Part shown: piece after piece, positions 24,678-46,500 of the stretch
Layout: each line of letters begins with the position of its first letter
How positions within the stretch are numbered: position 1 is the stretch's first letter
From: a bacterium
GTDB taxonomy: Bacteria; Patescibacteriota; Minisyncoccia; UBA6257; JAUSGH01
Length of the DNA: 64,000 nt
Reading direction: 5' to 3'
Assembly (NCBI GenBank): GCA_030649055.1
Contig: JAUSGH010000007.1
Coordinates: forward strand, 1,854 to 65,853
The notes under the pieces: generated by a model
What the model was told of the DNA's origin: nothing
The model's input: the letters and a program-made list of their open reading frames with translations, nothing else
Database searches by the model: none
Translations under genes and position numbers: made by a program

Positions 24678-24695
24678 TTAACACGATGCATGGTA

Positions 24696-26778: not shown

Positions 26779-26785
26779 AGTGCGG

Positions 26786-27144
26786 TGTCATTCCGGGCTT
26801 GACCCGGAATCCAGAGGATCTATGAAATCGTTATATAAATCTCTCCATTGCGGATTTTGGCGCTCAATAAGCTGAAGTTTCCACACACGGTGCCATTGTT
26901 TAACTTGTTTCTCTCGGGCAAGCGCCGTTCGCACGTCTGACGTTTCTTCGTAATAGACAAGCATATGTACTTTGTAGCGTTTCGTGAATCCATCAATCGC
27001 ATCGCTTTTGTGCTGTCCGACGCGCTTTACGAGATCGTTCGTGACGCCCGCATAGAGCGTACCGTTCCGCTTACTCGCCATTATGTACACATAATATGCG
27101 TTCATTATTGCGGCGTACTGGATTCCCGCTTTCGCGGGAATGAC
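26786..27144. mobile_element. GIY-YIG nuclease gene bracketed by the two halves of a palindromic element (GTCATTCCGGGCTTGACCCGGAATCCAG ... CTGGATTCCCGCTTTCGCGGGAATGAC)
   Basis: Half-sites at 26786-26813 and 27116-27144. The same two halves occur contiguously, without an ORF, at 35049-35147 and 43395-43479. Confidence 0.65.
26788..27105 (-). CDS. GIY-YIG nuclease superfamily small protein (UPF0213-like)
   Basis: 105 aa. N-terminal YYVYIMASKRNGTLYAGVTNDL..R..QH motif. The C-terminal ...LDSGSSPE is encoded by the element terminus. Confidence 0.8.
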   Translation of the reverse strand: MNAYYVYIMASKRNGTLYAGVTNDLVKRVGQHKSDAIDGFTKRYKVHMLVYYEETSDVRTALAREKQVKQWHRVWKLQLIERQNPQWRDLYNDFIDPLDSGSSPE

Positions 27145-27177
27145 AAAAAAATATATACAGAAGACACAAAACCAAAT

Positions 27178-28593
27178 CTAAAAAAACTTCATCTTCAGCA
27201 ACGAAAACGCCGTCATTTTGAGCAGTAGCCAGCCATGACGCCACCGGCTGATGTTGGTGCTGCCGTAGGTGCGCGCCTCATAACGAATAGGGAGGTCAAT
27301 GATTTTCAATCCCAATTTCGCCGCGCCGAACAATAAATCAAAATCACCGAACGGGTCAAAGTCGCCGAAAAAGGCCCGGCCTGCCGCGATGCGCTCATAG
27401 TCCGTCCGCAACAGCACCTTTGTTCCGCATAAGGTGTCCTTGACACGCTGGCCCAAAATCCACGAAAAACTCACACCAAAAAATTTATTGGCGATGTGGT
27501 TCAGCGTTTGCATTGCCTGGCGCTGCATCTGATACACCAGCCGCGAACCGTTAATGAACTCCCCCGCTCCCGAGGCGATCGCGGCATAAAACTTCGGCAA
27601 GTCCTCCGGAGGAACGGTTAAATCCGCGTCAAGAATAAACAACACGTCGCCCTTCGCCGCCGCAAACCCTTTCCGCACCGCGTCTCCCTTGCCTTTTCCG
27701 TCCTGGATGAGCAGCGTGATGTCTTTTTCTTTGTGCGCCGCAATCACGCGCTGAATTTCTTCCCGTGTGCCGTCTTTAGAACCGCCCTCAACGAAAATAA
27801 TTTCCGTGTGTGATCCCAGCTGCGGAGTCCGCAGCACCGCCGCTTCAATATTTCCTTTTTCGTTCCGCGCCGGAATAATAACCGACGTCGTATATTCGCG
27901 CACGGCCAATTGCCTCGGCTTCGCGATCACGTAACGCAAAAGGCACAGCCGCCGCAAAAGCGGAAGCCGGGCAATAAATCGGTTCACGAGATACGAAAGC
28001 AAGGGGATGTTTACCGGAATGAGTACCTCTTCGCCGCGCTTCACCACTTCAAACCCCGCAAGGTGGAGAAAATTTTCAAGATCGCCCGCGGAAAGCCAGT
28101 TTTGCGCCGGAGAAGACATTTTGAGATGCGCGAATTCCGCAAATCGTAGCAACGGCTCCCACAAAAAATTTGTGTAGGTGATAAGGATTTTCGTGTGGTC
28201 ATGTGTCACCTTTTTCAACTCCATAAACGCGCGCTGCACGTCGGGCAAATAGCTTACGAGGTCCGAACAGATGATATAGTCAAATTTCTCCGCAAGCGTA
28301 AGAGATTCCGCGTCCATAGTGAAAAAGGCGAGGTCAGAATGACGCTTTGCCGCGAGCGCGGTCATCTTTGGACTCATATCAACGCCCACGCCGCGTTTCG
28401 GCGCGACCGATGCGAGCAAATCCCCGGTGCCGGACCCCACGTCCAATACCGCGCTTCCTTTGGGAATGAAAAACTGCGCCACCTTGCGAATCGCTCCGTG
28501 ATAATAGCGGTGCCGCGTTTGCCACGCCCCACGTTTCGACGCGACGTCATCAAAAAACTTTTTAAGCTCCTCACCCGATGTCAGTTTTGTCAT
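27178..28593 (-). CDS. Bifunctional protein: N-terminal class I SAM methyltransferase fused to a C-terminal GT2 glycosyltransferase
   Basis: 471 aa. Motif I VLDVGSGTGDL in the N-terminal half. VIIPARNE, DGSKDGT, and DXD ILDADL in the C-terminal half. Confidence 0.75.
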   Translation of the reverse strand: MTKLTSGEELKKFFDDVASKRGAWQTRHRYYHGAIRKVAQFFIPKGSAVLDVGSGTGDLLASVAPKRGVGVDMSPKMTALAAKRHSDLAFFTMDAESLTLAEKFDYIICSDLVSYLPDVQRAFMELKKVTHDHTKILITYTNFLWEPLLRFAEFAHLKMSSPAQNWLSAGDLENFLHLAGFEVVKRGEEVLIPVNIPLLSYLVNRFIARLPLLRRLCLLRYVIAKPRQLAVREYTTSVIIPARNEKGNIEAAVLRTPQLGSHTEIIFVEGGSKDGTREEIQRVIAAHKEKDITLLIQDGKGKGDAVRKGFAAAKGDVLFILDADLTVPPEDLPKFYAAIASGAGEFINGSRLVYQMQRQAMQTLNHIANKFFGVSFSWILGQRVKDTLCGTKVLLRTDYERIAAGRAFFGDFDPFGDFDLLFGAAKLGLKIIDLPIRYEARTYGSTNISRWRHGWLLLKMTAFSLLKMKFF

Positions 28594-28606
28594 GCGATGA
28601 ATTCTA

Positions 28607-30115
28607 TCACGCCGTCTCTGTCTTTAGCAATCGCATTTTTTCCGTCAACAGCACCAATCCCGCCGCGACAAAAATGAAATAGATCGGCTCAAATGCCATT
28701 CTCATCCGCGCGTCAATCGCGGCGCCAATAGGCAGCGTGACGACAACAAAGAAAAGGATAAGTGCCGCAAAGAAAAACGCAGAAATCCTCCGCCTTTCAG
28801 GCACCTCCTTTAAGAAAGGAGGAATCGGGGGCACTTCTCCCTTTCCTAAAGGGAGTACCCGAAGGCCGGTGAATTTTAAAAAACGAATCCAAAAAGGTGC
28901 CCGTGGGCTTGAGGGATTTGCAAAAAGCACCCAAGTGCCGCAGATGGCGCAAAACAACAAAAATGACCAAATGGCTCGCATAACGAATGGAATCACATAC
29001 GTCCCGCGTATATACGGAATAATCTCGCCGATTGCGCGCAACGGATGCTCTTGCAATAGCGCCATGGAAAGCGGAATCGGCGGCCGCTTCGGGTACGGTA
29101 GCAACCGCATTTCATTCAGCATCGTCAACAGATTGTCATGCGTAAAAATTGTATAGACGGAGAGCGGCTGAAGCAGCATCATTTGCAGCGGGTATTGTTT
29201 GAAAATCGCAAGCGCGCGTTTTTTAAGTTCCGGCGCGACCCGCGGGTCATACAACTCTTCGTCGGTACCGCGTGCCGTCACTCCATCGCGTCCGAGTTGT
29301 GTGAGAAAGTTATTAAATACGGGGTTAAATTGCTGATTCGTTGCCGCGGCGTATACCGTCGCCCCGAGGCGCGTGTACACGTTGTACCAACCCGACGTTG
29401 AAAGCGTAAACACGCCGAACACGCGTTCGTTGCGCATCATCCACGGGAAAATAATGAGGAATGAGGGGATGAGGAACAGCACGCAAGCCGCTATCGCACT
29501 TTTCCAATTGCGCCACGCAAGTGGAAAAATAAGGAAGATGATCACGATCGGCAAAAAATAAAGAAAGTACGGCCTCGTGATTGAGGAAATTGCGAAAAGC
29601 GCTCCCGCAACAACCGCGCGGCCGGGTGTTGGGATGTCCAAGTAGCGCACAACTGCCACCGCAAACAACGCAAGAAGAAAAATAAAAATGCCCTCGGTCG
29701 CGATACCGACTTGATGATAAATAAGATGCGGTTCAACGGCGGTCAAAAACCCCGCAACATACGCAACGCTCCTGCTCCCCGACGCCTTCCACGCGAGCCA
29801 GAGTATCATAACCGGCACGAGCGCGTTCAGAAATACTTGGAAAAGATTTGCCGGCCAAAACGTCCCGAACACTTTATAAAACACGGCGAGGAAAACAGGA
29901 TAACCGGGTGTGCGGTACGCATCCGGCGCGTACGGCGCGACAGCGCTCAACGAAAACCCGTGACCCTCGACGATATTTTTCGCAAGCGTCGTGTAATGCG
30001 TCGCGTCAACGAGATATAACCCCTCGGGTCCCGAACGCCAGATAAAAAAATCGAATGCGGCAAGGCGCAGGATGAATGCGAAAAGAAAAATGGTGATGAG
30101 CGCACGTTTATCCAT
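28607..30115 (-). CDS. GT-C membrane glycosyltransferase, family 39/83-like (ArnT/PMT-like), paralog 2
   Basis: Polytopic, ~13 TM helices, with the ArnT-like loop (Y.TLAKN...GHGFS...P.A...YRTPGYP). Start set at the internal Met (MDKRALI) because the longer ORF runs into repeat element 30134-30205. Confidence 0.7.
   Translation of the reverse strand: MDKRALITIFLFAFILRLAAFDFFIWRSGPEGLYLVDATHYTTLAKNIVEGHGFSLSAVAPYAPDAYRTPGYPVFLAVFYKVFGTFWPANLFQVFLNALVPVMILWLAWKASGSRSVAYVAGFLTAVEPHLIYHQVGIATEGIFIFLLALFAVAVVRYLDIPTPGRAVVAGALFAISSITRPYFLYFLPIVIIFLIFPLAWRNWKSAIAACVLFLIPSFLIIFPWMMRNERVFGVFTLSTSGWYNVYTRLGATVYAAATNQQFNPVFNNFLTQLGRDGVTARGTDEELYDPRVAPELKKRALAIFKQYPLQMMLLQPLSVYTIFTHDNLLTMLNEMRLLPYPKRPPIPLSMALLQEHPLRAIGEIIPYIRGTYVIPFVMRAIWSFLLFCAICGTWVLFANPSSPRAPFWIRFLKFTGLRVLPLGKGEVPPIPPFLKEVPERRRISAFFFAALILFFVVVTLPIGAAIDARMRMAFEPIYFIFVAAGLVLLTEKMRLLKTETA
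28783..28856. repeat. Palindromic element, family D (AAATCCTCCGCCTTTCAGGCACCTCCTTTA-NN-AAAGGAGGAAT plus a second hairpin CTCCCTTTCCTAAAGGGAG), located inside the coding sequence of paralog 2
   Basis: Read directly. Copies at 56479-56522 and 57260-57337. Carries Shine-Dalgarno-like AAAGGAGGA. Translates in-frame as FLKEVPERRRIS here and as KSSAFQAPPLAKEE in 55928..57304. Confidence 0.65.
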
Positions 30116-30133
30116 AATATTTTCTATATGTAG

Positions 30134-30205
30134 CCCTTCGATAAACTCAGGGACTATTATTTCCTGAGCAAAGGTCCGATGAACATCGGACCGCAATCGA
30201 AGGAA
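30134..30205. repeat. Palindromic element, family C (CCCTTCGATAAACTCAGGG ... TCCTGAG-N27-TCGAAGGA)
   Basis: Read directly, between two minus-strand membrane protein genes. Confidence 0.6.
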
Positions 30206-30211
30206 TACCTT

Positions 30212-31978
30212 TTATAACTGATAAAGATAAATATCGTTATCAAAATCCCCGATAAGCAGCGGGCGATGAAGCGACTCATAGACCCAATCTTTCAATGGCC
30301 CGTCGGAGGCAACGTAATCAACGCGATAGCGCCGCAATGCCTCAAGAAAATCCTCATTCATAAACTCCGTAAAATCCTGTTCGCGCGCGCGAAGCAACCC
30401 ATCAATCCATCGCTCGTCAAAAAATACAAGATCGCGCCAATCCCGGCGAAAATGATCGCGGATCCACGTGCGATGTTCTATTAAAAACGCGCGGACGGTA
30501 CGCGACGTCACACCGTTCACGCGCATGAGCGTCAAAATATTATGCAGCACGCGCGCTTCCGCGTTATAACTCGCTTGCATCCACCCGTTCGCGTAGTCAT
30601 TGCACTGCGTAAATGCGGGTATGAGCCGCGTCAGCTTTTCCTCCACGCCTTCAGCGGAAAGCACGACGCAATCGTCAGGAGCATTCGCACGAAGCCACGA
30701 AAGCACGCCGTCGTATGTTTGAATGGAACGGAACTCCGGAATTTGATACGCGTATGTCCGCGCCGCCATAACGCCGTAGAAAAGCGCGAACGCCGAAACG
30801 CCGAGCATGCCCGCGGCCCATAATCTCGGAAGCCGCGGCCGAAACACGAAAGCGAGCGCCGCCATAACGGCAACAACGGCAAGCGGCGTGGTGTATTGCA
30901 CGAAGTGGTACGGCCAGATCGTTTTTCCGGTTATGATCTGCTGATTCAAGGCCCAAAGTCCGCCCAAAATAAGCGCGGAGCAAAACCACCACCGGTGAGG
31001 AAGCGCTACTCCCTCTCGTTTGCTCTTGCGGTACGCGGCGATAAGACATGAGATGAATATGAGCAACGCGAGAAATAACACCTTGTTCGCAATGGGCGCG
31101 TGCGTCAAGAGCAACCCGTTCTGCGCGTATATCCGGTCAGCTTCAGGAATCGCCGCCACCGCGCGCATGTTGTACCAATACGGAGCGGCAAGCATGAACC
31201 CGACGGCAACGGCGAGCGCGAGCCGTTTAAGAAATGTGTAGTCACGCAAGACAAACGCAATGGCGCCGAGAACTCCGGCAACCGAAAGCGCCATCCCCCA
31301 TGTAAAAAAATATCCGAACATCAGCGCGAACACGGCACCCGCGGCAACAACGACGCCAACGCTCGGGCGGCGCATCAGTTGCCACAACAAAAGCAAGAAT
31401 GTAAAAAGCAGTATCGCGCCCGTCACGGGATTCACCGGCCTGGCCCAAAGCGACCACGCGAAAAATTGCGCCTTGCCGTTTAAAACCGGCAAAAGACTAT
31501 TGTAGTCCACAAGACCGTAGCCGGTAGTCGCGAGCAATCCTCCGGCAACGCTGGCGAGCTTTCGCGCGTACTCCGGTTCCGCATCGGTCAGTCGGTAAAG
31601 CAATATATAAATCAAAAAAAACAAAACCGCGGGAAAGAAAAATTTCGCGAAAATAAGCGCGGAGACAAACGATGCGCCAAAGAACACCGGCCACATATAC
31701 GCATATTCGCCGATGGGATACAAGAATGGCGGGGCGTTTTTGTATTCATATATAAATGGCGAGCTCACCCAACCATGGCCATCCAGAATCTCGTGCATGC
31801 GCGCGACATAAAAACTGTTGTCATCCAGCGTCAAAAGATGAGCGCCTTTATAATCAGCGCCTAACGCGCGGATGGCCAACAGTTGTGGAGCAACCGCAAG
31901 TCCACCGACGACAACAGCAAAAAGAAGCGCGATCCAATGGCGCTGAAAGAAAAATTTTATACGTGCAGCGTAACTCAT
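30212..31978 (-). CDS. Large polytopic membrane protein with a C-terminal soluble domain; putative GT-C-type glycosyltransferase or glycan polymerase
   Basis: 588 aa, ~14 hydrophobic helices in the first 400 aa, then a ~180-aa hydrophilic domain. No named motif recognised. Confidence 0.4.
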   Translation of the reverse strand: MSYAARIKFFFQRHWIALLFAVVVGGLAVAPQLLAIRALGADYKGAHLLTLDDNSFYVARMHEILDGHGWVSSPFIYEYKNAPPFLYPIGEYAYMWPVFFGASFVSALIFAKFFFPAVLFFLIYILLYRLTDAEPEYARKLASVAGGLLATTGYGLVDYNSLLPVLNGKAQFFAWSLWARPVNPVTGAILLFTFLLLLWQLMRRPSVGVVVAAGAVFALMFGYFFTWGMALSVAGVLGAIAFVLRDYTFLKRLALAVAVGFMLAAPYWYNMRAVAAIPEADRIYAQNGLLLTHAPIANKVLFLALLIFISCLIAAYRKSKREGVALPHRWWFCSALILGGLWALNQQIITGKTIWPYHFVQYTTPLAVVAVMAALAFVFRPRLPRLWAAGMLGVSAFALFYGVMAARTYAYQIPEFRSIQTYDGVLSWLRANAPDDCVVLSAEGVEEKLTRLIPAFTQCNDYANGWMQASYNAEARVLHNILTLMRVNGVTSRTVRAFLIEHRTWIRDHFRRDWRDLVFFDERWIDGLLRAREQDFTEFMNEDFLEALRRYRVDYVASDGPLKDWVYESLHRPLLIGDFDNDIYLYQL

Positions 31979-32043
31979 AACCGGCGTCCTGCGCCATTCG
32001 CATTATTTACCCTCATTCGCATTACAGTTCGACAGTGCTCACT

Positions 32044-32099
32044 GTCATTATACCCTGAGCTTGTCGAAGGGTTCGCGATTACTCCTCCCGTTAATGACT
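32044..32099. repeat. Short palindromic element with GTCATTA...TAATGAC termini and a CCCTGAGCTTGTCGAAGGG core (family B/C hybrid), overlapping the 3' end of the GT2 gene
   Basis: Read directly. Confidence 0.5.
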
Positions 32100-33013
32100 T
32101 CCGACACAATCCCGATGGGCCGATGTTTCACTTCTTCATAAATCCTCGCCAAGTATTCCGCGATAACCGAAAGCGAGAGTAGCTGTACCGCGCCCAAAAA
32201 TAACATGAATACGAACATGGTGAGGTATCCTCGCGGCGCCGGGAAAAAGAAATACAACGCGGTATAGACGACAATCGCAATGCCCGCGAGAACCGTCACG
32301 ATTGCCGCGACATACGAAATAAGCTCCAGCGGTTTATACGAAAATGCGACAATCATCCGCTTCGCCCATTTGAAAAGCTCAAAAAAACTGTTAGTGCTTA
32401 CTCCCGAATACCGTTCATCACGAGTATACGGAACTCCGATAGAACGGAAGCCAACATACGCACGCATACCGCGAATATAACGATCAACTTCGCCAAAGCC
32501 ATTGATGACGTCGAGCGCCTTCCGGCCAATGAGCGAAAACTCGCCCGCATCCAATGGAATGTCGATGTAAGACATCTTGCGGAACACGCGGTAAAACGCT
32601 TTATAGAAAAACCGCATGAGCAAACTCGCCTTCCGCCGCGTCCGACGCCCATACACGATGGTGTATCCCGCAAGCCATTGCTTCACAAATTCCGGAAAAA
32701 GCTCCGGCGGGTCCTGAATGTCACCGTCCAAAAGAATCACCGCGTCGCCGTCCGCGTAACGCATGCCGGTGGTATACGCCACCTGTCCGCCGAAATTGCG
32801 CGAATGATTCAATACAATGAGATGTTTGTCTTTTGCCGCGATCTCGCGAAGTACGTCCAGGGCGTTATCCGGACTCGCATCGTTCACGTAAATAAGCTCC
32901 CAATTCGGCGTAATGCCGCGCATCACTTCCGTGACACGCCGGTGCATTTCTTTGACACTCCCCTCGTCATTCCAGCAAATAACGATGATGGAAATTTTTT
33001 TATCGGTGAGCAT
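32048..33013 (-). CDS. GT2 polyprenyl-phosphate glycosyltransferase with C-terminal membrane anchor (GtrB/ArnC-like)
   Basis: 321 aa. ISIIVICWNDEGSV, DXD motif LLDGDIQDPP, two C-terminal TM helices. Confidence 0.8.
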   Translation of the reverse strand: MLTDKKISIIVICWNDEGSVKEMHRRVTEVMRGITPNWELIYVNDASPDNALDVLREIAAKDKHLIVLNHSRNFGGQVAYTTGMRYADGDAVILLDGDIQDPPELFPEFVKQWLAGYTIVYGRRTRRKASLLMRFFYKAFYRVFRKMSYIDIPLDAGEFSLIGRKALDVINGFGEVDRYIRGMRAYVGFRSIGVPYTRDERYSGVSTNSFFELFKWAKRMIVAFSYKPLELISYVAAIVTVLAGIAIVVYTALYFFFPAPRGYLTMFVFMLFLGAVQLLSLSVIAEYLARIYEEVKHRPIGIVSEVINGRSNREPFDKLRV

Positions 33014-33099
33014 AGTTTTATTACCTAGTCATCATAGCGGCTTTATACGGTTGCCGTATGCGGCACATGAACCAATGATGCCGCAAAAATTGCAAGAAA

Positions 33100-34263
33100 T
33101 CAAACACAAGCGATGCGTTGGAGAAGTTGCTCAAACGCCTTTGCCGGCTCATGATAATCAAGCTCTTCGACGCGCGCGAATCCTTTTTCGATCAACGCGC
33201 CGGCAAGCGCTTCGTCATTCATCAACGACCCGATTTTTTTTGCCAAGTCATCAGCATTCTGATCCTCAAAGGCGAATCCCGCGTCACCCGTAAACCATTG
33301 TAACGCTCCGCCCCGTGGAACAATCGTCGGCACGCCGACGCCCATGGAATACACCACGAGCGCCGAGGCGATTTCCGGACGCCAGCACGGCAGAATAAAA
33401 CAATCGGCACGCTGCAACTGCGCGTACAATTCATCCATAGAAAGCCAGCCGGGAAATTCAACCTTGTCCGCGACGCCAAGATCGTGGGCAAGTTTTTGAA
33501 GTGGCCGGAGCTCCGGTCCGTCGCCGGCGACGACAACGCGAACGCGCTTGCGTTCCGGCATTTTTGCGACCGCGGTGAGCACAAGGTCAAACCCCTTCTC
33601 CCACACCATCCTGCCTCCGGTAAAAATAGTGAACTCGCCTTCTTGTCGCGCGCGGACAGCGCGTTTATGCCGAAGTATGTCTTCCGCGTCAAGAAAATCA
33701 AAGATAAAAAAAGATTTTTTCACGTCAAGCCCGAATCGGATATAACGATCACGGAGCATTGGCGAACAATATACGAAACCGTCAATATGATTCGCGAGAT
33801 AAATGCCGATTGTTTTTTCAATAACATATCGGATATTTCGCCGTAGCTCTGCGAACGTCCGCGTCACGGAAAACTTCTCTCTTCTTTTACGAAAAGGTGG
33901 GAAGGAAGTTTGTTCCCGGTTCAAGCCCGCTACAACCGGAGTTCGCCCCCCGAGCATGCGGTACAGCCCCGCGCCATACAAAGACACTGTACCATCAACG
34001 TGAAATACGTCCGCGCGTTTCTCGTATTTTTTAAGCATTCCGTACACACCATAATGGATGGCGAGCTGCCCCGAAGTGCCGATACGCTCCTCAATAACGG
34101 GGTATGCCGAAGGAATTGCCCCGCGGTTAATTCCGGGAAAAAGCGTGACGACAGTCACGTTGTGACCAAGCGCTTTCAATGCCCGCAATTTCAGATCAAG
34201 TTCCGGCGTTGAGTATCCTCCGGTTTCAAAATTAAGTTTTGTGGTAAAAAAGATGATGCGCAT
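33100..34263 (-). CDS. GT4 family glycosyltransferase (GT-B, group 1)
   Basis: 387 aa. C-terminal EGFDLVLTA...VVAGDGPE...VEFPGW..........D.FILPC..E.......YSMGVGVPTIV pattern of GT4. Confidence 0.8.
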   Translation of the reverse strand: MRIIFFTTKLNFETGGYSTPELDLKLRALKALGHNVTVVTLFPGINRGAIPSAYPVIEERIGTSGQLAIHYGVYGMLKKYEKRADVFHVDGTVSLYGAGLYRMLGGRTPVVAGLNREQTSFPPFRKRREKFSVTRTFAELRRNIRYVIEKTIGIYLANHIDGFVYCSPMLRDRYIRFGLDVKKSFFIFDFLDAEDILRHKRAVRARQEGEFTIFTGGRMVWEKGFDLVLTAVAKMPERKRVRVVVAGDGPELRPLQKLAHDLGVADKVEFPGWLSMDELYAQLQRADCFILPCWRPEIASALVVYSMGVGVPTIVPRGGALQWFTGDAGFAFEDQNADDLAKKIGSLMNDEALAGALIEKGFARVEELDYHEPAKAFEQLLQRIACV

Positions 34264-34273
34264 ATGCGTGCCG

Positions 34274-34342
34274 TCATTCTGAGCAGGACGAAGAATCTCT
34301 AAGAGATCCTTCGGCCCCGTTTAGCGGGGCCTCATGATGACC
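34274..34342. repeat. Palindromic element, family B (GTCATTCTGAGCAGGACGAAGAATCTC ... GAGATCCTTCGG ... CTCATGATGAC); its terminus supplies the last codons and stop of the GT2 gene
   Basis: Read directly. Confidence 0.55.
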
Positions 34343-35042
34343 GCGAGAAAAATTTCCACCAAATAATCTTCAGCAGCAACACCGCGTGGCGACGGAACTC
34401 GCGCGCGTAATTAAGCTTGGATACGCCGAATTGCCGCGCCGTGAGCTCCGCGGGGATTTCAACAAACGTCCTGCCTTTGAATACCAGTTTGAACAAAATC
34501 TCCGCGTTAATTTCGTATCCCTTACTCGTTAAATGCAACTCCTTCAACTGCGGCGTCTTGTAGAGCCGAAGAATTTGATTAATGGAGGTAACCGGTTTCC
34601 CTAAAAGCGTTGCGTACACTAAATTCGCCATTTTACTCACAAACAAACGGTACGCCGGAATGTCTTTGGCGTAACCGCCCAGCTTAGGCGAACCAATGAC
34701 AAAATCAACATCATTCGCCTCAAGCGCACTAAGAAGCGCGGGGATAAGTTTGGGGTGGAACGTCAGGTCGGAATCAAGAAAAACAATGAGATCGCCCGTT
34801 GCGCCCGCAATCCCCGTCCGCATCGCGGCGGAAAGTCCCTGATTTTTTTCGTGCGCGACAAGACGGACGCGTGCGTCGTGAATATTTTTTATTTCTCGCG
34901 CAGTACCATCAGCTGAACCGTCATCAACAAGCACCACTTCACTATCCATACCTAAGACATCAAGCACTGGCAAAAGCTCCGGCGCGAAACGTCGCACGTT
35001 CTCTTCTTCGTTAAAGCACGGGATGATGACGGATAATTTCAT
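34332..35042 (-). CDS. GT2 polyprenyl-phosphate sugar synthase-like glycosyltransferase (DPM1-like)
   Basis: LSVIIPCFNEEENV, VLVDDGSADGT, DXD LDSDLT. Start set at MKLSV; the 4 upstream codons come from the adjacent element terminus. Confidence 0.8.
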   Translation of the reverse strand: MKLSVIIPCFNEEENVRRFAPELLPVLDVLGMDSEVVLVDDGSADGTAREIKNIHDARVRLVAHEKNQGLSAAMRTGIAGATGDLIVFLDSDLTFHPKLIPALLSALEANDVDFVIGSPKLGGYAKDIPAYRLFVSKMANLVYATLLGKPVTSINQILRLYKTPQLKELHLTSKGYEINAEILFKLVFKGRTFVEIPAELTARQFGVSKLNYAREFRRHAVLLLKIIWWKFFSRSS

Positions 35043-35048
35043 GGTATG

Positions 35049-35147
35049 TGTCATTCCGGGCTTGACCCGGAATCCAGTACACCTAACTTTATAATCATAT
35101 TCTGGATTCCCGCTGGAGTTTATCCGCCTTCGGCGGGCGGGAATGAC
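35049..35147. repeat. Family A palindromic element, ORF-less copy (GTCATTCCGGGCTTGACCCGGAATCCAG - 24 bp - CTGGATTCCCGCTGGAGTTTATCCGCCTTCGGCGGGCGGGAATGAC)
   Basis: Both halves match the termini flanking the GIY-YIG gene at 26786-27144. Confidence 0.65.
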
Positions 35148-35165
35148 AGATGAAACGAAACCGCG

Positions 35166-36248: not shown

Positions 36249-36266
36249 CTTCTTACTCCATACTTC

Positions 36267-37181
36267 TTACTTCTTCCCACGCCATGCAATATAACGGTCA
36301 ATACCCTCATAAATGTTTACTGCCGACTCCCAACCAAGCAACCGCTTTGCTTTAGATGAATCCGCGATCATGTTGGACGCCTCTCCAGGCCTACCGTCGG
36401 CGTAAATCACTTTTCCATTCAATTTTTTCGCGACGTACTCGGCGATGTCTTTGATACGCGTCGCGTGACCGCTCCCAAAATTTACAACCTCGCCACGAAG
36501 CTCGGGGTGGTCCAAAAGCATTTCATACGCGCGAACGACGTCGGAAATATATACATAATCACGCGTCTGCTCCCCCGTACCGAACACGGTAATCGGTTTG
36601 CCCGCCAACGCGCGGCCGACAAAAATCGGAATCACGGCGCCGAATGTCCCCTCCTTCTGTCGCTCACCAAAGATATTAAAAAATCGGGCGATGGTCACCG
36701 GCGTTTTATACGTTTGCGCGTACGCGAAACACAGCCGGTCAGCGGCAGCTTTTGAAGCGGCGTACGGGCTCATCGGACGGAGTTCGGCATTTTCCGCGAC
36801 CGGCGCCCGTTCCGGCAAACCATACACCTCGCACGAAGACGTGAGGATCATCCGCGTTCCGGTTTTTTTGACTGCTTCAAGCACGTTGTATGTGCCGCGC
36901 ACATTCACCTCCATCGTCTCCCACGGGTGGGCAATTGACTCGTCCACGTTGACTCTAGCGCCAAGATGAAAAACAACATCCTTCCCGCGCATAGCCTTTT
37001 CGGTCACTTCGGCATCGGTGATTGAACCCCAAAGCACGCGACAACCTTCAAGATATTGTTCGTTGCCGGAGGCCTGCGGCGTAAGGGTGTTTAACACCGT
37101 CACCGCGTGCCCTAAACCAAGCATCTTTTGCGCCAAATGCGTCCCCTGAAACCCAGCCCCACCGGTGATAAGAATGTTCAT
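36267..37181 (-). CDS. NAD-dependent epimerase/dehydratase (SDR, GalE/UDP-sugar 4-epimerase-like)
   Basis: 304 aa. ILITGGAGFQG Rossmann motif and catalytic YAASK. Confidence 0.8.
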   Translation of the reverse strand: MNILITGGAGFQGTHLAQKMLGLGHAVTVLNTLTPQASGNEQYLEGCRVLWGSITDAEVTEKAMRGKDVVFHLGARVNVDESIAHPWETMEVNVRGTYNVLEAVKKTGTRMILTSSCEVYGLPERAPVAENAELRPMSPYAASKAAADRLCFAYAQTYKTPVTIARFFNIFGERQKEGTFGAVIPIFVGRALAGKPITVFGTGEQTRDYVYISDVVRAYEMLLDHPELRGEVVNFGSGHATRIKDIAEYVAKKLNGKVIYADGRPGEASNMIADSSKAKRLLGWESAVNIYEGIDRYIAWRGKK

Positions 37182-37220
37182 AAAAATGCAACAAATATCA
37201 TATAGACAAGAGTTATACAG

Positions 37221-38141
37221 ATGTATATACTATATACATTATCCATGCCTAACGTCAACAAATTGAAGGTCGGAATCATCGGAACCGGCAACATCGGGAG
37301 CGATTTGCTCATGAAAGTCATGCGCTCGCCGTTTTTGACGTGTGGCATGTTCACCGGACGAGATAAAGACTCCGCCGGCATCGCACGCGCGAAAAAACTC
37401 GGCGTGCCAACCTCGCACGAATCCATTAAGGCGATCATTGACGACCCTGCGTGTTGCGACATCGTATGCGACGCGACCTCGGCCGCGGTACACGCCGAGC
37501 ACGCCGCGATATTAAAAAAACTAGGGAAATTCACCATTGACCTTACCCCGTCGCGCATCGGCGTGCCCTGCATTCCCATTTTAAACCTTGACGAAGCGTT
37601 GGAAGCCGATAACGTGAGCTTAATCACGTGCGGAGGACAAAGTGTCATCCCCATCGCGCGAGCGATCATGGAGGTCCACCCCGAGACCGAATACATTGAG
37701 CTCGTCGGAAGCATCGCGTCCAAATCCGCGGGTCCGGGAACACGCGCGAACATTGAGGAATACATCCGGACGACCCGCAGCGCGCTCGAAAAGTTTTCCG
37801 GCGTGCCGCGCGGCAAAGTCATTCTTATCTTGAACCCCGTGGAACCGCCAATTCATATGCACAATACGGTGTACGCGCAGATTCCGCATCCGGACATTCC
37901 CGCATTGCGTAAAAAAATTATGGCCGTCGTGAAACGCATCCAAGCATATGTGCCCGGTTATCGTTTGTCGGTAGGACCTATCGCGCGGCAAGACAGAGTC
38001 ACCGTTGTGACGGAAGTTGTTGGTGCCGAAGATTTTTTGCCGGCGTACGCGGGCAATCTTGATATCATCACCTGCGCGGCCGTCAAAGTCGCCGAAGCGT
38101 ACGCCGAAAAGCACGTGGCTGGGCGACGCAAAAAGCGGTAA
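37221..38141 (+). CDS. Acetaldehyde dehydrogenase (acetylating), DmpF/MhpF family
   Basis: 306 aa. LKVGIIGTGNIGSDL start, catalytic Cys in ITCGGQS, overall colinear with DmpF. True start may be the Met at 37245 (MPNVNKLKV). Confidence 0.8.
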   Translation: MYILYTLSMPNVNKLKVGIIGTGNIGSDLLMKVMRSPFLTCGMFTGRDKDSAGIARAKKLGVPTSHESIKAIIDDPACCDIVCDATSAAVHAEHAAILKKLGKFTIDLTPSRIGVPCIPILNLDEALEADNVSLITCGGQSVIPIARAIMEVHPETEYIELVGSIASKSAGPGTRANIEEYIRTTRSALEKFSGVPRGKVILILNPVEPPIHMHNTVYAQIPHPDIPALRKKIMAVVKRIQAYVPGYRLSVGPIARQDRVTVVTEVVGAEDFLPAYAGNLDIITCAAVKVAEAYAEKHVAGRRKKR

Positions 38142-38158
38142 CTTCAAACACTGACGCC

Positions 38159-39193
38159 ATGAACGACATCAAAATTTTTGATTCAACCCTGCGCGACGGC
38201 TCGCACGCCATCGCGCACACCCTAACACCGGAAAACGTCGCTCGGTACTGCCGGGCGATTGACGGCTCCGGCGTGCACGTGGTCATCGTCGGGCACGGGA
38301 ACGGTCTTGGCGCCTCATCACTTCAAGTGGGACTTTCTTCCGCGTCAGACGAGGCACTGCTCAAAGCCGCGCGCAAAGAATTAAAACACACAAAGCTGGG
38401 TGTCCTTATTTTCCCGGGCTTTGGCACCATCGAAGACGACCTGAAACCGGCGCTCGCGCTCGGCACGGACGTCATACTTGTCGCGGCGCACTGCACCGAG
38501 GCAGACCTCACCGCGCAATACATTTCTTACGCGAAGACGCAAAAAAAAGAGGTGTACGGAATGCTGATGATGTATCACATGACGACCAAAGAGCGCTTGC
38601 TTACGGAAGCTAAAAAAATGGAAGGGTATGGCGCGCAAGGGCTGCTGTTAATGGACTCCGCCGGCGCCTCAACTCCCGCGCTGGTCAAAGAAACCGTTTC
38701 CCATCTCGTAGGAAACCTCTCTATTCCCGTGGGGTTCCACGCGCACAATAATTTGGGGATGGCGGTCGCGCACACATGGATCGCTCTCGAAGCCGGGGCG
38801 CGTATCGTTGACGGCACCGTCAAGGGTTTTGGCGCGGGCGCGGGCAATTGCGCGCTTGAAGTCTTAACCGCGCTGCTGCAGAAAATGGGTTATAAAACGC
38901 CGACGAATCTCTATAAACTCATGGACGCGGGCGATGAACTGGAGCGCTCCATTATGAAAAAACCGCAGGAGATCAGCTCCATCAGCATCGCAAGCGCTCT
39001 CGCCGGTGTATTTTCCGGCTTTGCGCGGCCAGTGAAACGCGCGGCGGAGATCTATGGCGTTGATCCGCGCGACATCTTTAAGATATTGGGCGAGCGCCGC
39101 ATTATCGTCGGGCAGGAAGACATGGTGTTTGAAATCGCCATGGAGCTGGCTAAACTGAAGAAGGGCAAAAGCAATAAAGCAATAAAGCAATAA
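38159..39193 (+). CDS. 4-hydroxy-2-oxovalerate aldolase family (DmpG/MhpE-like, HMGL-like TIM barrel)
   Basis: 344 aa. IFDSTLRDGSHA motif, HAHNNLGMAVA metal site, C-terminal DmpG communication domain. Confidence 0.8.
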   Translation: MNDIKIFDSTLRDGSHAIAHTLTPENVARYCRAIDGSGVHVVIVGHGNGLGASSLQVGLSSASDEALLKAARKELKHTKLGVLIFPGFGTIEDDLKPALALGTDVILVAAHCTEADLTAQYISYAKTQKKEVYGMLMMYHMTTKERLLTEAKKMEGYGAQGLLLMDSAGASTPALVKETVSHLVGNLSIPVGFHAHNNLGMAVAHTWIALEAGARIVDGTVKGFGAGAGNCALEVLTALLQKMGYKTPTNLYKLMDAGDELERSIMKKPQEISSISIASALAGVFSGFARPVKRAAEIYGVDPRDIFKILGERRIIVGQEDMVFEIAMELAKLKKGKSNKAIKQ

Positions 39194-39202
39194 AACGCTA
39201 CC

Positions 39203-41038
39203 ATGAATGTTGCCGATTTTCTCTTAAAATATTTCAGCGACCGCGGCGTCACGCACGCGTTCCTCTTGCCCGGCGGGCATGCCATGTTTTTAAATGATGC
39301 GCTCGCAAAAAATAAACAACTGAGCTACACCTGCCTGCTTCATGAACAAGGCGTCGCAATGGCGGCAGAGGCCTACGGACGCGCATGCGGAAAACCCGCA
39401 ATCGCGATGGTAACCGCCGGCCCCGGAGCGACAAACGCCATCACGGGGGTTGTTGGCGCGTGGGTGGACTCTTCCCCTATGATCATCATCACAGGCCAGT
39501 CCGATCTGAATATTGTGCGACGCGCCGAAAAAACAGGCATACGCCAGCTTGGCGCGCAAGGCATTAGTATCCGCGCCATGGTCACGCCAATCACCAAATA
39601 TTTTGTAACAGTGGACAGTCCCGCAAAGGCCGGCGCATATGCCGCGAAAGCGTGGGAAGCGCTCCACGTCGGACGTCCCGGCCCGGTGTGGCTTGAGGTG
39701 CCGCTGGACATCCAGCGCTCCGAAGTTCCGCCGGCGGTCGTTCGCGCGGCAGAACACATCACCGCGCCACGCGACGTGCATCGCGTGACACCAACGCTCG
39801 CCAAATATGCAGCTGAGGTGTACAAAAAAATCACGGAGGCAAAGCGACCGCTTTTCATCTTCGGCCAAGGCGTGCGCCTTTCAGGCGGCGTTTCGGAATT
39901 TGAATCGGTAATCAAAAAAATAAAAATTCCTCTTATCACCTCCCGCCTGGGGCTGGATATTATCCCAAGCGACCATCCCGCCTTCATCGGCCGCCCGGGC
40001 ACATATGGCGACCGCGCCGCAAATTTAGCCGTACAAAACGCTGACCTTATTGTGGCCGTCGGCTCGCGCCTTGCGACTTCAATGACGGGATACAACGTAA
40101 AGGATTTTGGCAGGAACGCGGGCATTATTCTTGTGGACATTGACGAAAAGGAATTAAAAAAACCCGATCTCCGCCTCGTTATGCCAATCAAAGCCGACGC
40201 GAAAGCGTTTCTTGCGGCACTCGCAAACGAAGCAGGCGCGAAGGGCGACATTGAGCGCGCATCTTGGCTCGCCATCGCCAAGGGTTGGAGAAAAAAATAC
40301 CCTGTGGTGCTTCCGGAATATAAAACACAAAATCCGGTAAACACATATTACTTCGTGGATCGGCTCTCCGCGCTGGCGCCCGAAGGAGCGCAAATTCTTA
40401 CGGACACCAGTTCAATCTTCCACGTAAGCGCGCAAGCGTGGAAGATTAAAAAGGGTCAACGCTATATCACGACCGGCGGCATTTCCACTATGGGCTACTG
40501 GGTGGCGAGCGTGGGCATGTGCATTGCGAACAACAGGAAACCCACGATCGTACTTGTCGGTGACGGCAGTTTGGAAATGAACATCTACGGATTCGCAACC
40601 GTAAAAGGAAGCAACCTTCCGATTAAGATATTTGTCTTAAATAACAACGGCTACCTGCTCATCCGCCACACGCAAAAAAACTTTTTTGAAGGACGCATGA
40701 TCGGCGAAAGCCCTGCCTCGGGCGTCACGCTCCCCGATGTGCGAAAAGTCGCCGAAGCGTATGGCCTAAAAACCATGCGCATCAACTCAGCGAGCGAGGT
40801 AGATCAAAAAATCAAAGAAATGCTCGCCTACGACGGCCCCGTGGTGTGTGAAGTCATGACCCCCGAGTGGCAATTTATTATGCCGAGAGTCGGCGGGATG
40901 AAACAAGCGGACGGAAAAGTTGTGCCGAACAGGTACGAGAACATGTCTCCCCCGCTTCCGCCGGAGGAATTAAAAGCGAATATGATCGCGGAGTCGGGGC
41001 GATCGTCATTGCGAGCAAAGCGAAGCAATCTTACATAA
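39203..41038 (+). CDS. Thiamine-diphosphate-dependent enzyme of the acetolactate-synthase large-subunit family (YerE-like sugar-branching enzyme candidate)
   Basis: 611 aa. Three-domain AHAS-like layout; ThDP-binding GDGS...NN motif (LVGDGSLEMNIYG...NNNGY). Confidence 0.85.
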   Translation: MNVADFLLKYFSDRGVTHAFLLPGGHAMFLNDALAKNKQLSYTCLLHEQGVAMAAEAYGRACGKPAIAMVTAGPGATNAITGVVGAWVDSSPMIIITGQSDLNIVRRAEKTGIRQLGAQGISIRAMVTPITKYFVTVDSPAKAGAYAAKAWEALHVGRPGPVWLEVPLDIQRSEVPPAVVRAAEHITAPRDVHRVTPTLAKYAAEVYKKITEAKRPLFIFGQGVRLSGGVSEFESVIKKIKIPLITSRLGLDIIPSDHPAFIGRPGTYGDRAANLAVQNADLIVAVGSRLATSMTGYNVKDFGRNAGIILVDIDEKELKKPDLRLVMPIKADAKAFLAALANEAGAKGDIERASWLAIAKGWRKKYPVVLPEYKTQNPVNTYYFVDRLSALAPEGAQILTDTSSIFHVSAQAWKIKKGQRYITTGGISTMGYWVASVGMCIANNRKPTIVLVGDGSLEMNIYGFATVKGSNLPIKIFVLNNNGYLLIRHTQKNFFEGRMIGESPASGVTLPDVRKVAEAYGLKTMRINSASEVDQKIKEMLAYDGPVVCEVMTPEWQFIMPRVGGMKQADGKVVPNRYENMSPPLPPEELKANMIAESGRSSLRAKRSNLT

Positions 41039-41045
41039 ACTATTT

Positions 41046-41924
41046 ATGAAAATTTTTCTTACCGGCGGCGCCGGATTCATCGGAAAAAACATCATTGAAC
41101 AGCTCGGCAAAGTGCACGAGATTATTGCGCCCACGCGCGAGGAGCTTGACCTCACGAACTCCGAGGCGGTATTCACGTTCCTCAAGAAACATCCGGTGGA
41201 TGTCGTGATTCATGCCGCAAACATCGGCGGTACGCGCAAGCAACAGCACGTCTTCGGCATCACGCACACGAACCTCAAAATGTTTTTCAATATTATCCGC
41301 GCGAAACCATTTTTCAAACGCATGATCACGCTCGGATCCGGCGCGGAATACGGCAAGCAACACCCCATCATGAACGTGAACGAAAACAATTTCAGCACCC
41401 ACGTTCCCGACGACGAGTACGGCCTCTATAAATACGTTTGCGCGGAGTACGCGTCAAAGGTGGACTACATCACGCACGTGCGACTCTTCGGAGTGTTCGG
41501 AAAATACGAGGATATCCAAATCCGCTTTATTTCCAACGCCATCTGCAAGGCGCTTTCGGGCATGCCCATCACCATTCGCCAGAACGTCGTGTTTGATTAC
41601 ATTTTCGTTGACGACCTCGTGCGGATACTGGACGCGTTTGTCCGCCGCAAACCGAAAGAAATATTTTTCAACACCGGCCGCGGTGAAGGCGTAGATCTTC
41701 GGACCATCGCGAAAAAAGTCATTCACGAAGTCGGCACGAAAGTACCCGTGCTCGTGCAGACGCCGGGACGCGCGAAGGAATACACCTGTTCAACCGCGCG
41801 CCTCAAAAAAACGTTGACGCACTTCTCATACACGCCGCTCGATATCGCCATCGCGAAACTTGTCGCGTACTACCAAACTATCCTCCCCACGATTGACCGC
41901 GAACTACTCACGCGCGACATTTAA
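41046..41924 (+). CDS. NAD(P)-dependent sugar epimerase/reductase (SDR; RmlD/YerF-like ketoreductase candidate)
   Basis: 292 aa. IFLTGGAGFIGKN Rossmann motif, YGLYK catalytic motif. Confidence 0.75.
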   Translation: MKIFLTGGAGFIGKNIIEQLGKVHEIIAPTREELDLTNSEAVFTFLKKHPVDVVIHAANIGGTRKQQHVFGITHTNLKMFFNIIRAKPFFKRMITLGSGAEYGKQHPIMNVNENNFSTHVPDDEYGLYKYVCAEYASKVDYITHVRLFGVFGKYEDIQIRFISNAICKALSGMPITIRQNVVFDYIFVDDLVRILDAFVRRKPKEIFFNTGRGEGVDLRTIAKKVIHEVGTKVPVLVQTPGRAKEYTCSTARLKKTLTHFSYTPLDIAIAKLVAYYQTILPTIDRELLTRDI

Positions 41925-43381
41925 CTTTCGTCAGAACACGCACGAGCGCTATCGCGCCGATACATAAAGATTTTCCCGACGTCGCCCTGAAATGCGTAGC
42001 ATGGTGGGATTCTTTCTATTTCAGGTCCGGAATTCCTCGGGACAAAAATTGTTGAAAAAACACCCCGCAGGAGCTTTGCCTCATTTTCTTGCCCCACAAT
42101 AAACCGGTCGCTCATGCGGATGTATTGGTAAAACGCGCTTGACTGGTGCCGCGCGGCAATCTGCGGCAAATTGTAGAAAAACACGTTATTGTCGCTGCGT
42201 AACGCTTCAAGGTGTGACCCTATCGTTACCGGCAACACGTCCCGGACACGGCTCCCCTCCTTCCAAAGCGGAACAAGCTGCGCTCCAATAAATACGGCGA
42301 TGAGCGCCGCAAAAAACTTAAGACGCAACCCGTCACGTTTCAGCGCAACGCCAAGCATCGCATCAATGCCGGGCGCGAGGAAAAGAAAAAGCATGATGTG
42401 CGCGGGATAAAAATAACGATACCATCCTTCGGTGCGCACATAGAACGCGAGCGTCAGGAGCGCGAAAAGAAATGCCGCGATTTCCGCCATCGACACTCCT
42501 CTCTGCTGCCATATTTTTTTAACAAGAAACGCGAATGCGACGAGGAACAATACAAGCAAATGTGCAGGTGTTGATTCAGTAAAAAAACGCGCTATATTCG
42601 CCGCAATAAGCGGAACAAAATCCGCGACGTAATACGGATTCGCGTAATGCCCGAAAATTCGCGCGAGGGAGGACGCCCCGCCAAACTGCGTGAATATCCA
42701 CCACAAAATGGCCCCAACGCATCCTAACGCAAGCCAGAGCGTTTGCCGCCGGCCCTCGGGCGTAAGTACCATACGGCGCGCATTAAAAAGCAGTGCAAGA
42801 AATAACGCGGGTAGTATAACGAGAAACGTCGGCTTCGCGCTTGCCGCGAACCCCAACACAACACCGGAGGCGGCAAAAAGTACCGACGATGCCTTTGCGG
42901 ATTGCTCGGCGTACAGAAGTAACAGCAAGCCAGCCACTAAAAAGAACAGCGCGGGCGTTTCCCCGGCAAAGCTTTTTCCGTTGCCATAGAGCGGCGTAAA
43001 AGTTGTAAGCAATGCCGTTCCAACGCATGCGATCCGATTCCCGTAGAGTTTCCGCGACAGAAAGAAGAAAGCCACGACAAGTCCAAGCGCGAAAAGCACC
43101 GCGACAATGTGAAACACCGTAACGGAAAATCCGAAGATCAAGATTGCCGCGACCGCGGGGTAAATCGTCGGGTACCCCATCGTGATAAGCGCCGCGTTAT
43201 AAAACGTGCCGGGAGCGATTTCTATACCCCAAACACCCTGCTCCGCAATGTTCCGGACAAGCTGGACAAAAATCCCTTCGTCAAACCAAAATTCAGGATT
43301 CCACACGGAAAAATACAAAAACGCCGCAGCGGTGAATCCGAATAACAATGCCGCAACAAGGATGTATCGTCGATTTATCAT
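41921..43381 (-). CDS. GT-C membrane glycosyltransferase, family 39/83-like, paralog 3
   Basis: Polytopic ArnT/PMT-like pattern (FDEGIF...G.........YP). Start set at MINRRYIL; the first two codons of the longer ORF derive from element 43395-43479. Confidence 0.65.
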   Translation of the reverse strand: MINRRYILVAALLFGFTAAAFLYFSVWNPEFWFDEGIFVQLVRNIAEQGVWGIEIAPGTFYNAALITMGYPTIYPAVAAILIFGFSVTVFHIVAVLFALGLVVAFFFLSRKLYGNRIACVGTALLTTFTPLYGNGKSFAGETPALFFLVAGLLLLLYAEQSAKASSVLFAASGVVLGFAASAKPTFLVILPALFLALLFNARRMVLTPEGRRQTLWLALGCVGAILWWIFTQFGGASSLARIFGHYANPYYVADFVPLIAANIARFFTESTPAHLLVLFLVAFAFLVKKIWQQRGVSMAEIAAFLFALLTLAFYVRTEGWYRYFYPAHIMLFLFLAPGIDAMLGVALKRDGLRLKFFAALIAVFIGAQLVPLWKEGSRVRDVLPVTIGSHLEALRSDNNVFFYNLPQIAARHQSSAFYQYIRMSDRFIVGQENEAKLLRGVFSTIFVPRNSGPEIERIPPCYAFQGDVGKIFMYRRDSARACSDES

Positions 43382-43394
43382 AGTGAGGCACTTT

Positions 43395-43479
43395 GTCATT
43401 CCGGACTCGATCCGGAATCCAGTTTGCCAAGTCCTGGATTCCCGCTGGAGTTTACCCGCCTTTGGCGGGCGGGAATGAC
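43395..43479. repeat. Family A palindromic element, ORF-less copy (GTCATTCCGGACTCGATCCGGAATCCAG ... CTGGATTCCCGCTGGAGTTTACCCGCCTTTGGCGGGCGGGAATGAC)
   Basis: Read directly. Confidence 0.65.
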
Positions 43480-43482
43480 ACG

Positions 43483-46463: not shown

Positions 46464-46465
46464 GG

Positions 46466-46500
46466 CAATATTTGCTTAATTGCTTAATTGTTTTATTGCT
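46466..46500. repeat. Short tandem octamer repeat (GCAATWAA-like units; reverse complement reads GCAATAAAACAATTAAGCAATTAAGCAA) at a gene junction
   Basis: Read directly. Similar octamer runs at 39169-39192 (GCAATAAA x3) and 50636-50672. They encode ...AIKQ termini. Confidence 0.5.

Follow-up and report, generated by a model that had tools for sequence, protein, structure and literature searches.

Why should a gene for a small GIY-YIG nuclease lie tightly enclosed between two short inverted hairpins that recur, as pairs without a gene, in the same region? The question is raised by a locus on contig JAUSGH010000007.1 (GenBank assembly GCA_030649055.1), of which a stretch of 64 kb (in the following called the window) was analysed; the contig comes from a metagenome-assembled genome (MAG) of an uncultured Patescibacteria-like bacterium. 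An earlier interpretation made without database searches (the sequence-only reading) had taken the enclosed gene for an autonomous mobile element and the gene-less pairs for its miniature derivatives. It had missed that nucleases and hairpins of this kind are already described, which emerged from a full-text search with the repeat sequence. Because the gene with its hairpins, the latter also gene-less, was published in 2025 (Chenal et al., Nat Commun 2025, PMC11893778), the window locus can be regarded as a known kind of system and, judged by sequence comparison, is with a probability of about 0.85 a new case of the Ssn/NTS system in a Patescibacteria-like MAG.

The nuclease gene and its hairpins

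The Neisseria Transformation Sequence (NTS), CGTCATTCCCGCGMAVGCGGGAATCYRG, is a hairpin containing the classical dRS3 repeat. NTS-like repeats, called Ssn-related motifs (SRM), flank the small GIY-YIG gene ssnA across bacterial phyla in the arrangement NTS-ssnA-NTS. SsnA is a site-specific endonuclease, which binds and cuts the NTS solely as single-stranded DNA (ssDNA), a few nucleotides 5′ of the repeat; cleavage is lost in the Y6A, Y17A and E64A mutants, and in N. meningitidis SsnA reduces transformation by NTS-bearing DNA. Biochemistry was reported for four family members, and the three beyond SsnA, including that from Wolbachia, cut beside their own repeats. The family was delimited by E<1e-10 over >75% of the length versus SsnA from N. 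meningitidis or by CDD cd10448, and the SRM by the regular expression HGTCWYN(0-2)YYVSBRHN(0-5)WNVSBRGN(0-2)RNCYNB. An analogy to IS, REP and BIME mobile elements was raised in the discussion; doublets were not analysed (all PMC11893778). The Ssn/NTS pairing was previously characterised only in Neisseria and Wolbachia.

The window was scanned with the pattern GTCATTCC-N(6-36)-GGAATCC, for which 100 dinucleotide-preserving shuffles served as control. Exactly six matches were found versus 0.00 expected. These oriented units (GTCATTCC-stem/loop-GGAATCCAG) are arranged as three inverted pairs, GTC ends outward. One pair encloses the GIY-YIG gene; the other two (35050-35147 and 43395-43479) are free of open reading frames (ORFs) and are referred to as doublets 2 and 3:

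26785..26814 (pattern match 26787-26812), plus strand: downstream unit gtGTCATTCCGGGCTTGACCCGGAATCCAG, 8-bp stem, CTTGA pentaloop, repeat family D6
26788..27105, minus strand: ssn-like GIY-YIG nuclease gene, 105-aa ORF, single domain; the NCBI call is one codon longer (P0001, 106 aa)
27118..27145 (pattern match 27120-27144), minus strand: upstream unit of NTS type, tGTCATTCCCGCGAAAGCGGGAATCCAG, 8-bp stem, GAAA loop
35048..35077 (pattern match 35050-35075), plus strand: doublet 2 unit a, CTTGA type, D6, 100% identity to 26785-26814
35102..35148 (pattern match 35104-35147), minus strand: doublet 2 unit b, branched, repeat family D15, NTS-type stem
43393..43422 (pattern match 43395-43420), plus strand: doublet 3 unit a, CTCGA loop, D6, 87% identity
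43434..43480 (pattern match 43436-43479), minus strand: doublet 3 unit b, branched, D15, 96% identical to 35102-35148

The upstream unit tGTCATTCCCGCGAAAGCGGGAATCCAG is identical to the NTS consensus at 27 of 28 positions and is the single match to the SRM expression in the window, where 0.21 would be expected. It lies 12 nt from the ATG of the nuclease gene and has a predicted DNA fold of −9.0 kcal/mol (z=−3.4). Palindromic termini around a 105-aa GIY-YIG gene, from which the sequence-only reading had started, are therewith corroborated, the protein matching Pfam GIY-YIG (PF01541) with E=2.8e-18 over residues 4-76. The ORF-less pairs are real as well, but their units are not directly joined as had been stated: spacers of 24 nt (doublet 2) and 11 nt (doublet 3) lie between them. 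Nor do all their termini equal those of the gene. The left unit of doublet 2 does, that of doublet 3 has three substitutions versus the other D6 copies, two of which compensate each other and turn a G:C stem pair into A:T, and the right units of both carry a 23-nt insertion, CCGCCRAAGGCGGRTAAACTCCA, where the NTS-type unit has its GAAA loop. The layout of the insertion is CCGCC-GAA-GGCGG-ATAAACTCCA and across both doublets CCGCC-RAA-GGCGG-RTAAACTCCA. An 8-bp DNA hairpin is predicted for every unit, and a doublet could fold as two hairpins or as one long hairpin. All units sit in short intergenic gaps between co-oriented or convergent genes.

The nuclease ORF is the only GIY-YIG ORF in the window. 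Its product is a single GIY-YIG domain without an extra DNA-binding domain, in which Y7, Y18, R28, H32, E65 and N84 are invariant among 38 homologues. Y7, Y18 and E65 keep the spacing of Y6, Y17 and E64 in SsnA, shifted by one residue, so the catalytic residues are intact. The downstream unit overlaps the final eight codons and the stop of the gene: as the sequence-only reading had recognised, the C-terminal LDSGSSPE* is encoded within the left hairpin, and an alignment of homologues indicates that the conserved core stops near residue 95 and that the remaining tail is hairpin read-through. It had also rightly noted that the ORF-less copies supply spurious starts to neighbouring genes. ATG 35054 yields MTHT-MKLSVIIPCFNEE and ATG 43399 yields MTKCLT-MINRR; both ATGs come from the unit's GGAATGAC end, and these longest-ORF starts lie four and six codons, respectively, upstream of MKLSVIIPCFNEE and MINRR, at which translation more plausibly begins.

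With 5159 matching representatives of 50%-identity clusters (E<=1e-10), the family is a large one. Homologues from betaproteobacteria that have flanks of the NTS type show 55-63% identity to the window protein (E about 1e-36 to 1e-38). NCBIfam holds no model for the protein. UPF0213/YhbQ proteins, such as BH0048 (PDB 1ZG2), are similar in size and share the GIY-YIG fold; since 1ZG2 was the only match in the PDB and a marginal one (E=0.009, 19 bits), the window protein belongs to a different subfamily. We know of no repeat association for UPF0213. Among 2.9 million viral contigs there are about 16 close homologues, few of them with hairpins; carriage of the family by phages is therefore rare.

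The pairing of gene and hairpins was followed in 80 loci with nuclease homologues (54-67% identity) from species-representative genomes, which cover several Patescibacteria lineages, Omnitrophota, Armatimonadota, Chloroflexota, Planctomycetota, Nitrospirota, Ignavibacteriota, Cyanobacteria and alpha-, beta-, gamma- and delta-proteobacteria. Units were defined as GTC, immediately followed by a stem of >=7 bp and then C, a definition that replaced an over-permissive version with a 6-bp stem and long loop. In the 80 loci 380 units were detected versus 68 in the reversed-sequence control. Most homologous genes (65 of 87) have a same-strand unit <=200 nt upstream, at a median gap of 23 nt, and 73 of 85 have an opposite-strand unit at or just past the stop (median gap 6 nt); in 14 of 75 cases the downstream unit extends into the ORF, as it does in the window. 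Outward-facing hairpins are present on both sides of 56 of the 85 genes (66%), and the architecture is thus shared across phyla. At distances of more than 1 kb from homologous genes the background density is 0.126 units per kb, the association with the gene being about 60-fold above it.

The detector left C25, A26, G27 and the base in front of GTC free, and these positions agree with the NTS flanks: GTC is preceded by Y, and the closing C is followed by CAG. In the stem, the outer ATTCC/GGAAT hardly varies and pairs 6-8 covary (CG, GC or TA at pair 6; GC or AT at pair 8 of the pentaloop class), which fits a sequence-specific recognition of the hairpin base, where the inner stem would need only to pair. 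The units fall into two main classes, one with a GNRA-like tetraloop and one with a C(T/C)(T/C)GA pentaloop. The exact 25-nt NTS-type sequence of the window recurs in the loci of 13 other organisms, and the exact 26-nt CTTGA-type sequence in those of five other organisms plus a close relative. The lineage of the window, uncultured and with a small genome, has the same 25-28-nt hairpin, whose sequence is shared exactly with copies from eight or more further phyla. Translated hairpins also account for C-terminal tails of homologues (DSGSSPE, GFPPSRE, DPRFRGDD) and for some N-terminal extensions (CHSSESWNPE).

In the window and in two further loci (L001 and L002) the upstream unit has a GNRA tetraloop and the downstream unit a CTTGA pentaloop. 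Such a specialisation of the two ends was rejected for the 80 loci (46/11 vs 43/18, Fisher p=0.21).

The branched variant with the 23-nt insertion was found among the fetched genome loci just in one (L019) and in the close relative. It is present in 10 metagenome contigs, in which the inner triloop alone varies; nine of the 10 do not resemble the window, and each has flanks of its own, except for one near-identical pair (L122/L125). The branched unit is a conserved variant.

Neighbouring units <=150 nt apart were counted in the 80 homologue loci. GTC-outward adjacencies are the commonest (64, median spacer 27 nt), followed by GTC-inward ones (43, many of which are junctions of adjacent doublets in arrays) and by tandems (19 and 7); units occur also as singles, tandems and arrays. 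Since the order that prevails is that found around the gene, the gene-less doublet is a general, REPIN-like feature of the Ssn system.

Comparison with a syntenic relative

A relative was found via neighbouring proteins (86-93% identical) on JGI 3300027819 contig Ga0209514_10000454, of which 40 kb were compared. It is syntenic with window positions 17463-51423 at 75-87% nucleotide identity. The relative has an orthologous copy of doublet 2 in the UDP-GlcNAc 2-epimerase/GT2 gap (L083 680-760), there with a plain GAAA loop, and doublet 3, in the GT4/PMT_2 gap, is likewise present (L089 11174-11300), including the 23-nt insertion. The insertion-bearing form of the unit, as carried by doublet 3, seems to have been taken up by doublet 2 of the window, and this would fit gene conversion between copies. 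The nuclease cassette, however, is absent from the relative, whose 40 kb contain no ssn homologue. Its position (window 26737-27177 vs L083 11411-12298) is occupied in the relative by a gene for a 234-aa NYN-domain protein, with the convergent MT-GT2 and PMT_2 genes again on either side. This gene is unrelated to the nuclease; the slot therefore takes alternative cargo. Conversely, the relative has three doublets that are absent from the window. The repeats are therefore kept at some sites through about 20% nucleotide divergence and turned over at others.

Presence/absence polymorphism had been proposed as a test in the sequence-only reading. It is seen in both directions (cassette in the window only, three doublets in the relative only, two shared), but it does not yield the precise empty site that insertion would leave: at 75-87% identity none is definable, the boundaries of the polymorphic sites are fuzzy, and at the gene locus the segment diverging from the relative does not stop at the hairpins but includes the 3′ end of the gene next to it. 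Nor was a target-site duplication found at the three window copies, and a consistent insertion motif, which had also been proposed, did not materialise. The flanks (CGGT/AAAA, ATGT/AGAT and CTTT/ACGC) share only the T before GTC, itself part of the unit, and overall nothing but T or C before GTC is constant. Because of the missing duplication, the missing precise empty site and the divergence beyond the hairpins, transposition and recombination-based replacement are not separated, and evidence for transposition as such is weak. It should be noted, however, that units accompany GIY-YIG genes in other genomes as well. On this point and on polymorphism versus a relative the sequence-only reading had staked itself, and it keeps its ground because 56 of 85 homologues are bracketed, outward doublets are commonest and presence/absence polymorphism is seen.

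One of the doublets specific to the relative (L083 9055-9124; window about 29478-29545) lies in frame inside a PMT_2 membrane-protein ORF. It is part of an 81-nt (27-codon) indel versus the window, and one reading frame through it is free of stops. At L089 11174-11300 the stem-loop of the CTCGA unit harbours a perfect palindrome of 42 nt (CCTGCCTGTCCGGTAGGCAGG/CCTGCCTACCGGACAGGCAGG). Taken with the insertion of 23 nt in the loop, this suggests that small palindromes insert preferentially within the hairpins, making them hotspots of nested insertion.

A more distant relative (L087, 82% amino acid identity) has no doublet at the epimerase/GT2 site and has a different repeat there. This repeat belongs to a third family with the core CTGAG(T/C)TT(A/G)TCGAAGG, present in the window at 6612, 24499, 24604, 24656 and 32055 (plus strand) and at 30150 and 58711 (minus strand). 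The family includes an exact 52-nt tandem duplication at 24576-24679, and it is one copy of it that fills the doublet-2 site in L087.

Opposite window positions 33014-33097 the relative (L083 2799-5559) has three extra genes, for an NAD-epimerase and for a transketolase split in N- and C-terminal halves. The glycosylation cluster is a mosaic of indels.

Mechanism and alternative explanations

The preferred interpretation, which we consider well founded, is that the locus consists of an Ssn-family nuclease and its cognate oriented NTS/SRM hairpins, of the form (Y)GTC + ATTCC-stem/loop-GGAAT + CCAG. It has in common with the published system the single-domain GIY-YIG protein of about 95 aa, the oriented hairpin repeat with the GTCATTCC...GGAATCCAG core, the repeat-gene-repeat layout and the gene-less repeats scattered and clustered around cell-surface genes. 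It differs in its host (an uncultured Patescibacteria-like MAG, from a group unmentioned in PMC11893778), in the organisation of the repeats as tight inverted doublets, and in the activity of the nuclease, which is here a prediction. What appears to go beyond that publication are the REPIN-like organisation in doublets, the pentaloop and branched classes of units, the nested and in-frame insertions and the concrete comparison of gain and loss in a Patescibacteria-like lineage.

This does not mean that all observations favour the assignment. The SRM expression fits just one of the six units; the other five share the GTCATTCC/GGAATCCAG flanks yet fall outside, belonging to the CTTGA pentaloop class or to the branched class with its 23-nt insertion. 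The count of units for this genome covers the 64 kb of the window. And the fuzzy-edged polymorphic sites could be explained by ordinary turnover of variable intergenic DNA through indels and recombination, without any nuclease. These points weigh against the assignment to the Ssn/NTS system.

By analogy with the characterised SsnA proteins the window nuclease would bind the hairpin only in ssDNA, as it would arise in replication, DNA uptake or repair, and would then nick the unit strand a few nucleotides 5′ of the GTCATT box. An ssDNA-specific cleavage by this protein is thus probable, and a role in limiting or steering the recombination of incoming DNA, as in Neisseria, may be envisaged on the same grounds. 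The cleavable sites of a doublet or of the cassette would sit on opposite strands at the outer borders, a geometry compatible with break-stimulated recombination or gene conversion, by which doublets and gene cassette would be gained, lost and homogenised over evolutionary time. Our best guess is that the repeats spread via nuclease-stimulated recombination or gene conversion between copies rather than by cut-and-paste transposition. The system may be selfish, or domesticated in a DNA-uptake-dependent lineage for limiting or steering recombination of incoming DNA, or both.

If the system is instead an autonomous transposon with miniature inverted-repeat derivatives, the nuclease would be a transposase and the gene-less doublets would be mobilised in trans, following the logic of IS200/IS605 or RAYT/REPIN. 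The structure fits and generalises: the gene is tightly enclosed by inverted GTC-outward units, here and in the 56 of 85 homologues across phyla, and doublets of the same orientation (64) predominate. The gene element is missing at the orthologous site of the relative, which has its own three doublets; protein identity is flat, about 55-67%, across very distant phyla, as horizontal spread would predict; and the same analogy was drawn in the discussion of Chenal et al. (PMC11893778). What this view does not account for is the lack of a target-site duplication, of a clean empty site (the relative's gene locus having the NYN gene and divergence past the hairpins) and of an insertion motif beyond T/C before GTC. 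When read directly, the doublet spacers (24 and 11 nt) show no resemblance to the inner ends of the cassette, the likeness being restricted to the hairpin units, and an origin by internal deletion, as required for miniature copies, is therefore not demonstrated. Despite a nucleotide divergence of roughly 20%, two doublets are still found at orthologous sites, and singles, tandems and arrays of units occur as well. The characterised family members are hydrolytic ssDNA endonucleases, not demonstrated transposases (PMC11893778). With cleavable sites on opposite strands, moreover, single-strand excision of the IS200/IS605 type would be ruled out. Because GIY-YIG enzymes hydrolyse DNA without a covalent intermediate, no strand-transfer chemistry is known for them to our knowledge, and we know of no precedent in the superfamily for a cut-and-paste transposase. 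All in all, we think the transposon rather unlikely.

Somewhat doubtful, too, is a more far-reaching interpretation, in which cassette and doublets are a replicating system convergent with RAYT/REPIN, its copying being driven by the hydrolytic GIY-YIG ssDNA nuclease. Extruded hairpins would be nicked at replication forks or in incoming ssDNA, followed by recombination-dependent copying. The observed turnover is compatible with such a replicator without demonstrating it; should it exist, it would also create hotspots for hairpin-nested insertions, for in-frame gene insertions and for an exchange of cassettes in the surface-glycosylation clusters of Patescibacteria. The hairpins could also be regulatory or structural elements of the host (terminators, attenuators or REP-like stabilisers of mRNA) that lie near the GIY-YIG gene incidentally. 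Their position in short gaps of co-oriented or convergent genes, their stable stems and the conservation of two doublets at orthologous positions would agree with this. A T-tract, however, follows none of the units in the window, none was called terminator-like, and there is no Rfam match anywhere in the window; the tie to one gene family in 66% of 85 homologues from unrelated phyla, some 60-fold over background density, and the conserved, non-palindromic, oriented flanks GTC and CCAG, neither of which a plain terminator needs, make a regulatory origin improbable. Most improbable of all is a free-standing homing endonuclease of the I-TevI or phage type with hairpins as remnants of homing sites. 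It would explain the GIY-YIG catalytic domain and the absence of the gene from the relative's orthologous locus, but the protein has only about 95 conserved residues without DNA-binding domain or linker, the gene is not associated with an intron, many copies of the repeats have no gene, and the 2.9 million viral contigs contain only the roughly 16 close homologues, few with hairpins.

The Ssn-type locus can also be compared with other repeat systems. REPIN-RAYT and REP/BIME elements (Bertels and Rainey, 2011, PMC3116915; Nunvar, 2010; Ton-Hoang, 2012) likewise consist of short palindromic units in inverted doublets, with a single-copy gene for a hairpin-recognising ssDNA enzyme itself located between inverted units, and combine long persistence of doublets at orthologous sites with turnover elsewhere. 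The enzyme in the window is, however, a hydrolytic GIY-YIG protein rather than an HUH/Y1 transposase (Y1_Tnp) with covalent intermediate, and the 5′ box of its unit is GTC rather than the tetranucleotide GTAG/CGTC. IS200/IS605 elements have subterminal hairpins that are recognised in ssDNA and a small gene in between, but there the Y1 transposase cuts both ends on the same strand and left and right ends are distinct, whereas the window units are inverted copies with cleavable sites on opposite strands and without significant specialisation of left and right. The NIMEs of Neisseria, dRS3-RS-dRS3 (Bentley et al., 2007, PMC1797815), contain a dRS3 core, ATTCCC-N8-GGGAAT, that is the palindrome of the NTS-type unit; here, too, units stand on either side of short AT-rich spacers and are clustered close to variable genes for surface structures. 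NIMEs were described as Neisseria-specific and form long arrays, in contrast to the isolated doublets with 11-24-nt spacers found here in a different phylum.

The REPIN-like doublets of the window lie inside a variable gene cluster for cell-surface glycosylation, and the relative provides concrete cases of gain, loss and homogenisation, which can be used for testing whether the nuclease drives propagation of the repeats. For annotation it is of importance that these repeats account for junk peptides that recur in MAG proteomes (DSGSSPE, GFPPSRE, LDSRFRGND), as well as for false N-terminal extensions and for breaks of contigs.

Other repeats in the window

A Logan contig of 2181 nt from SRR13727527 (L091) matches window 43452-45632 at 100% identity, with its end lying within doublet 3; it therefore represents the same strain in another dataset, with the assembly broken at the repeat.

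A second family of doublets is found at 5406-5469, 34274-34343 and 60625-60687, with the structure GTCATTCTGAG..GAAGAATCTC-N4-GAGATCCTTCG..CAGAATGAC. It follows the same grammar (GTC, ATTC palindrome, C), with another inner sequence and TCTC in place of CCAG; there is no second GIY-YIG gene within the window. A repeat of 50 nt with its own hairpin, AAATCCTCCGCC.TTCAGGCACCTCCTTTA.CAAAGGAGGAAT, is present at 28777-28826, 56474-56523 and 57254-57303. The first of these copies lies inside the PMT_2-like ORF 28607..30196, in a 164-nt segment missing from the relative. A perfect inverted repeat of 25 nt, its arms 84 nt apart (21977-22001 / 22086-22110), is located in a segment of which the relative has a shorter version, and an inverted repeat of 32-33 nt, GTATAGAGTATTGAGTATTAAGAAG..., occurs in two copies (3993-4452 and 61561-61639). 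Finally, there are two types of AT-rich short-period arrays, one with a period of 8 nt and TTGCTTAA-like units (46464-46510, 50623-50677, 39168-39194, 854-892 and 5480-5510) and one with a period of 9 nt and TATAAGTCC-like units (3201-3257 and 59502-59549), both of which recur at several intergenic places and on both strands.

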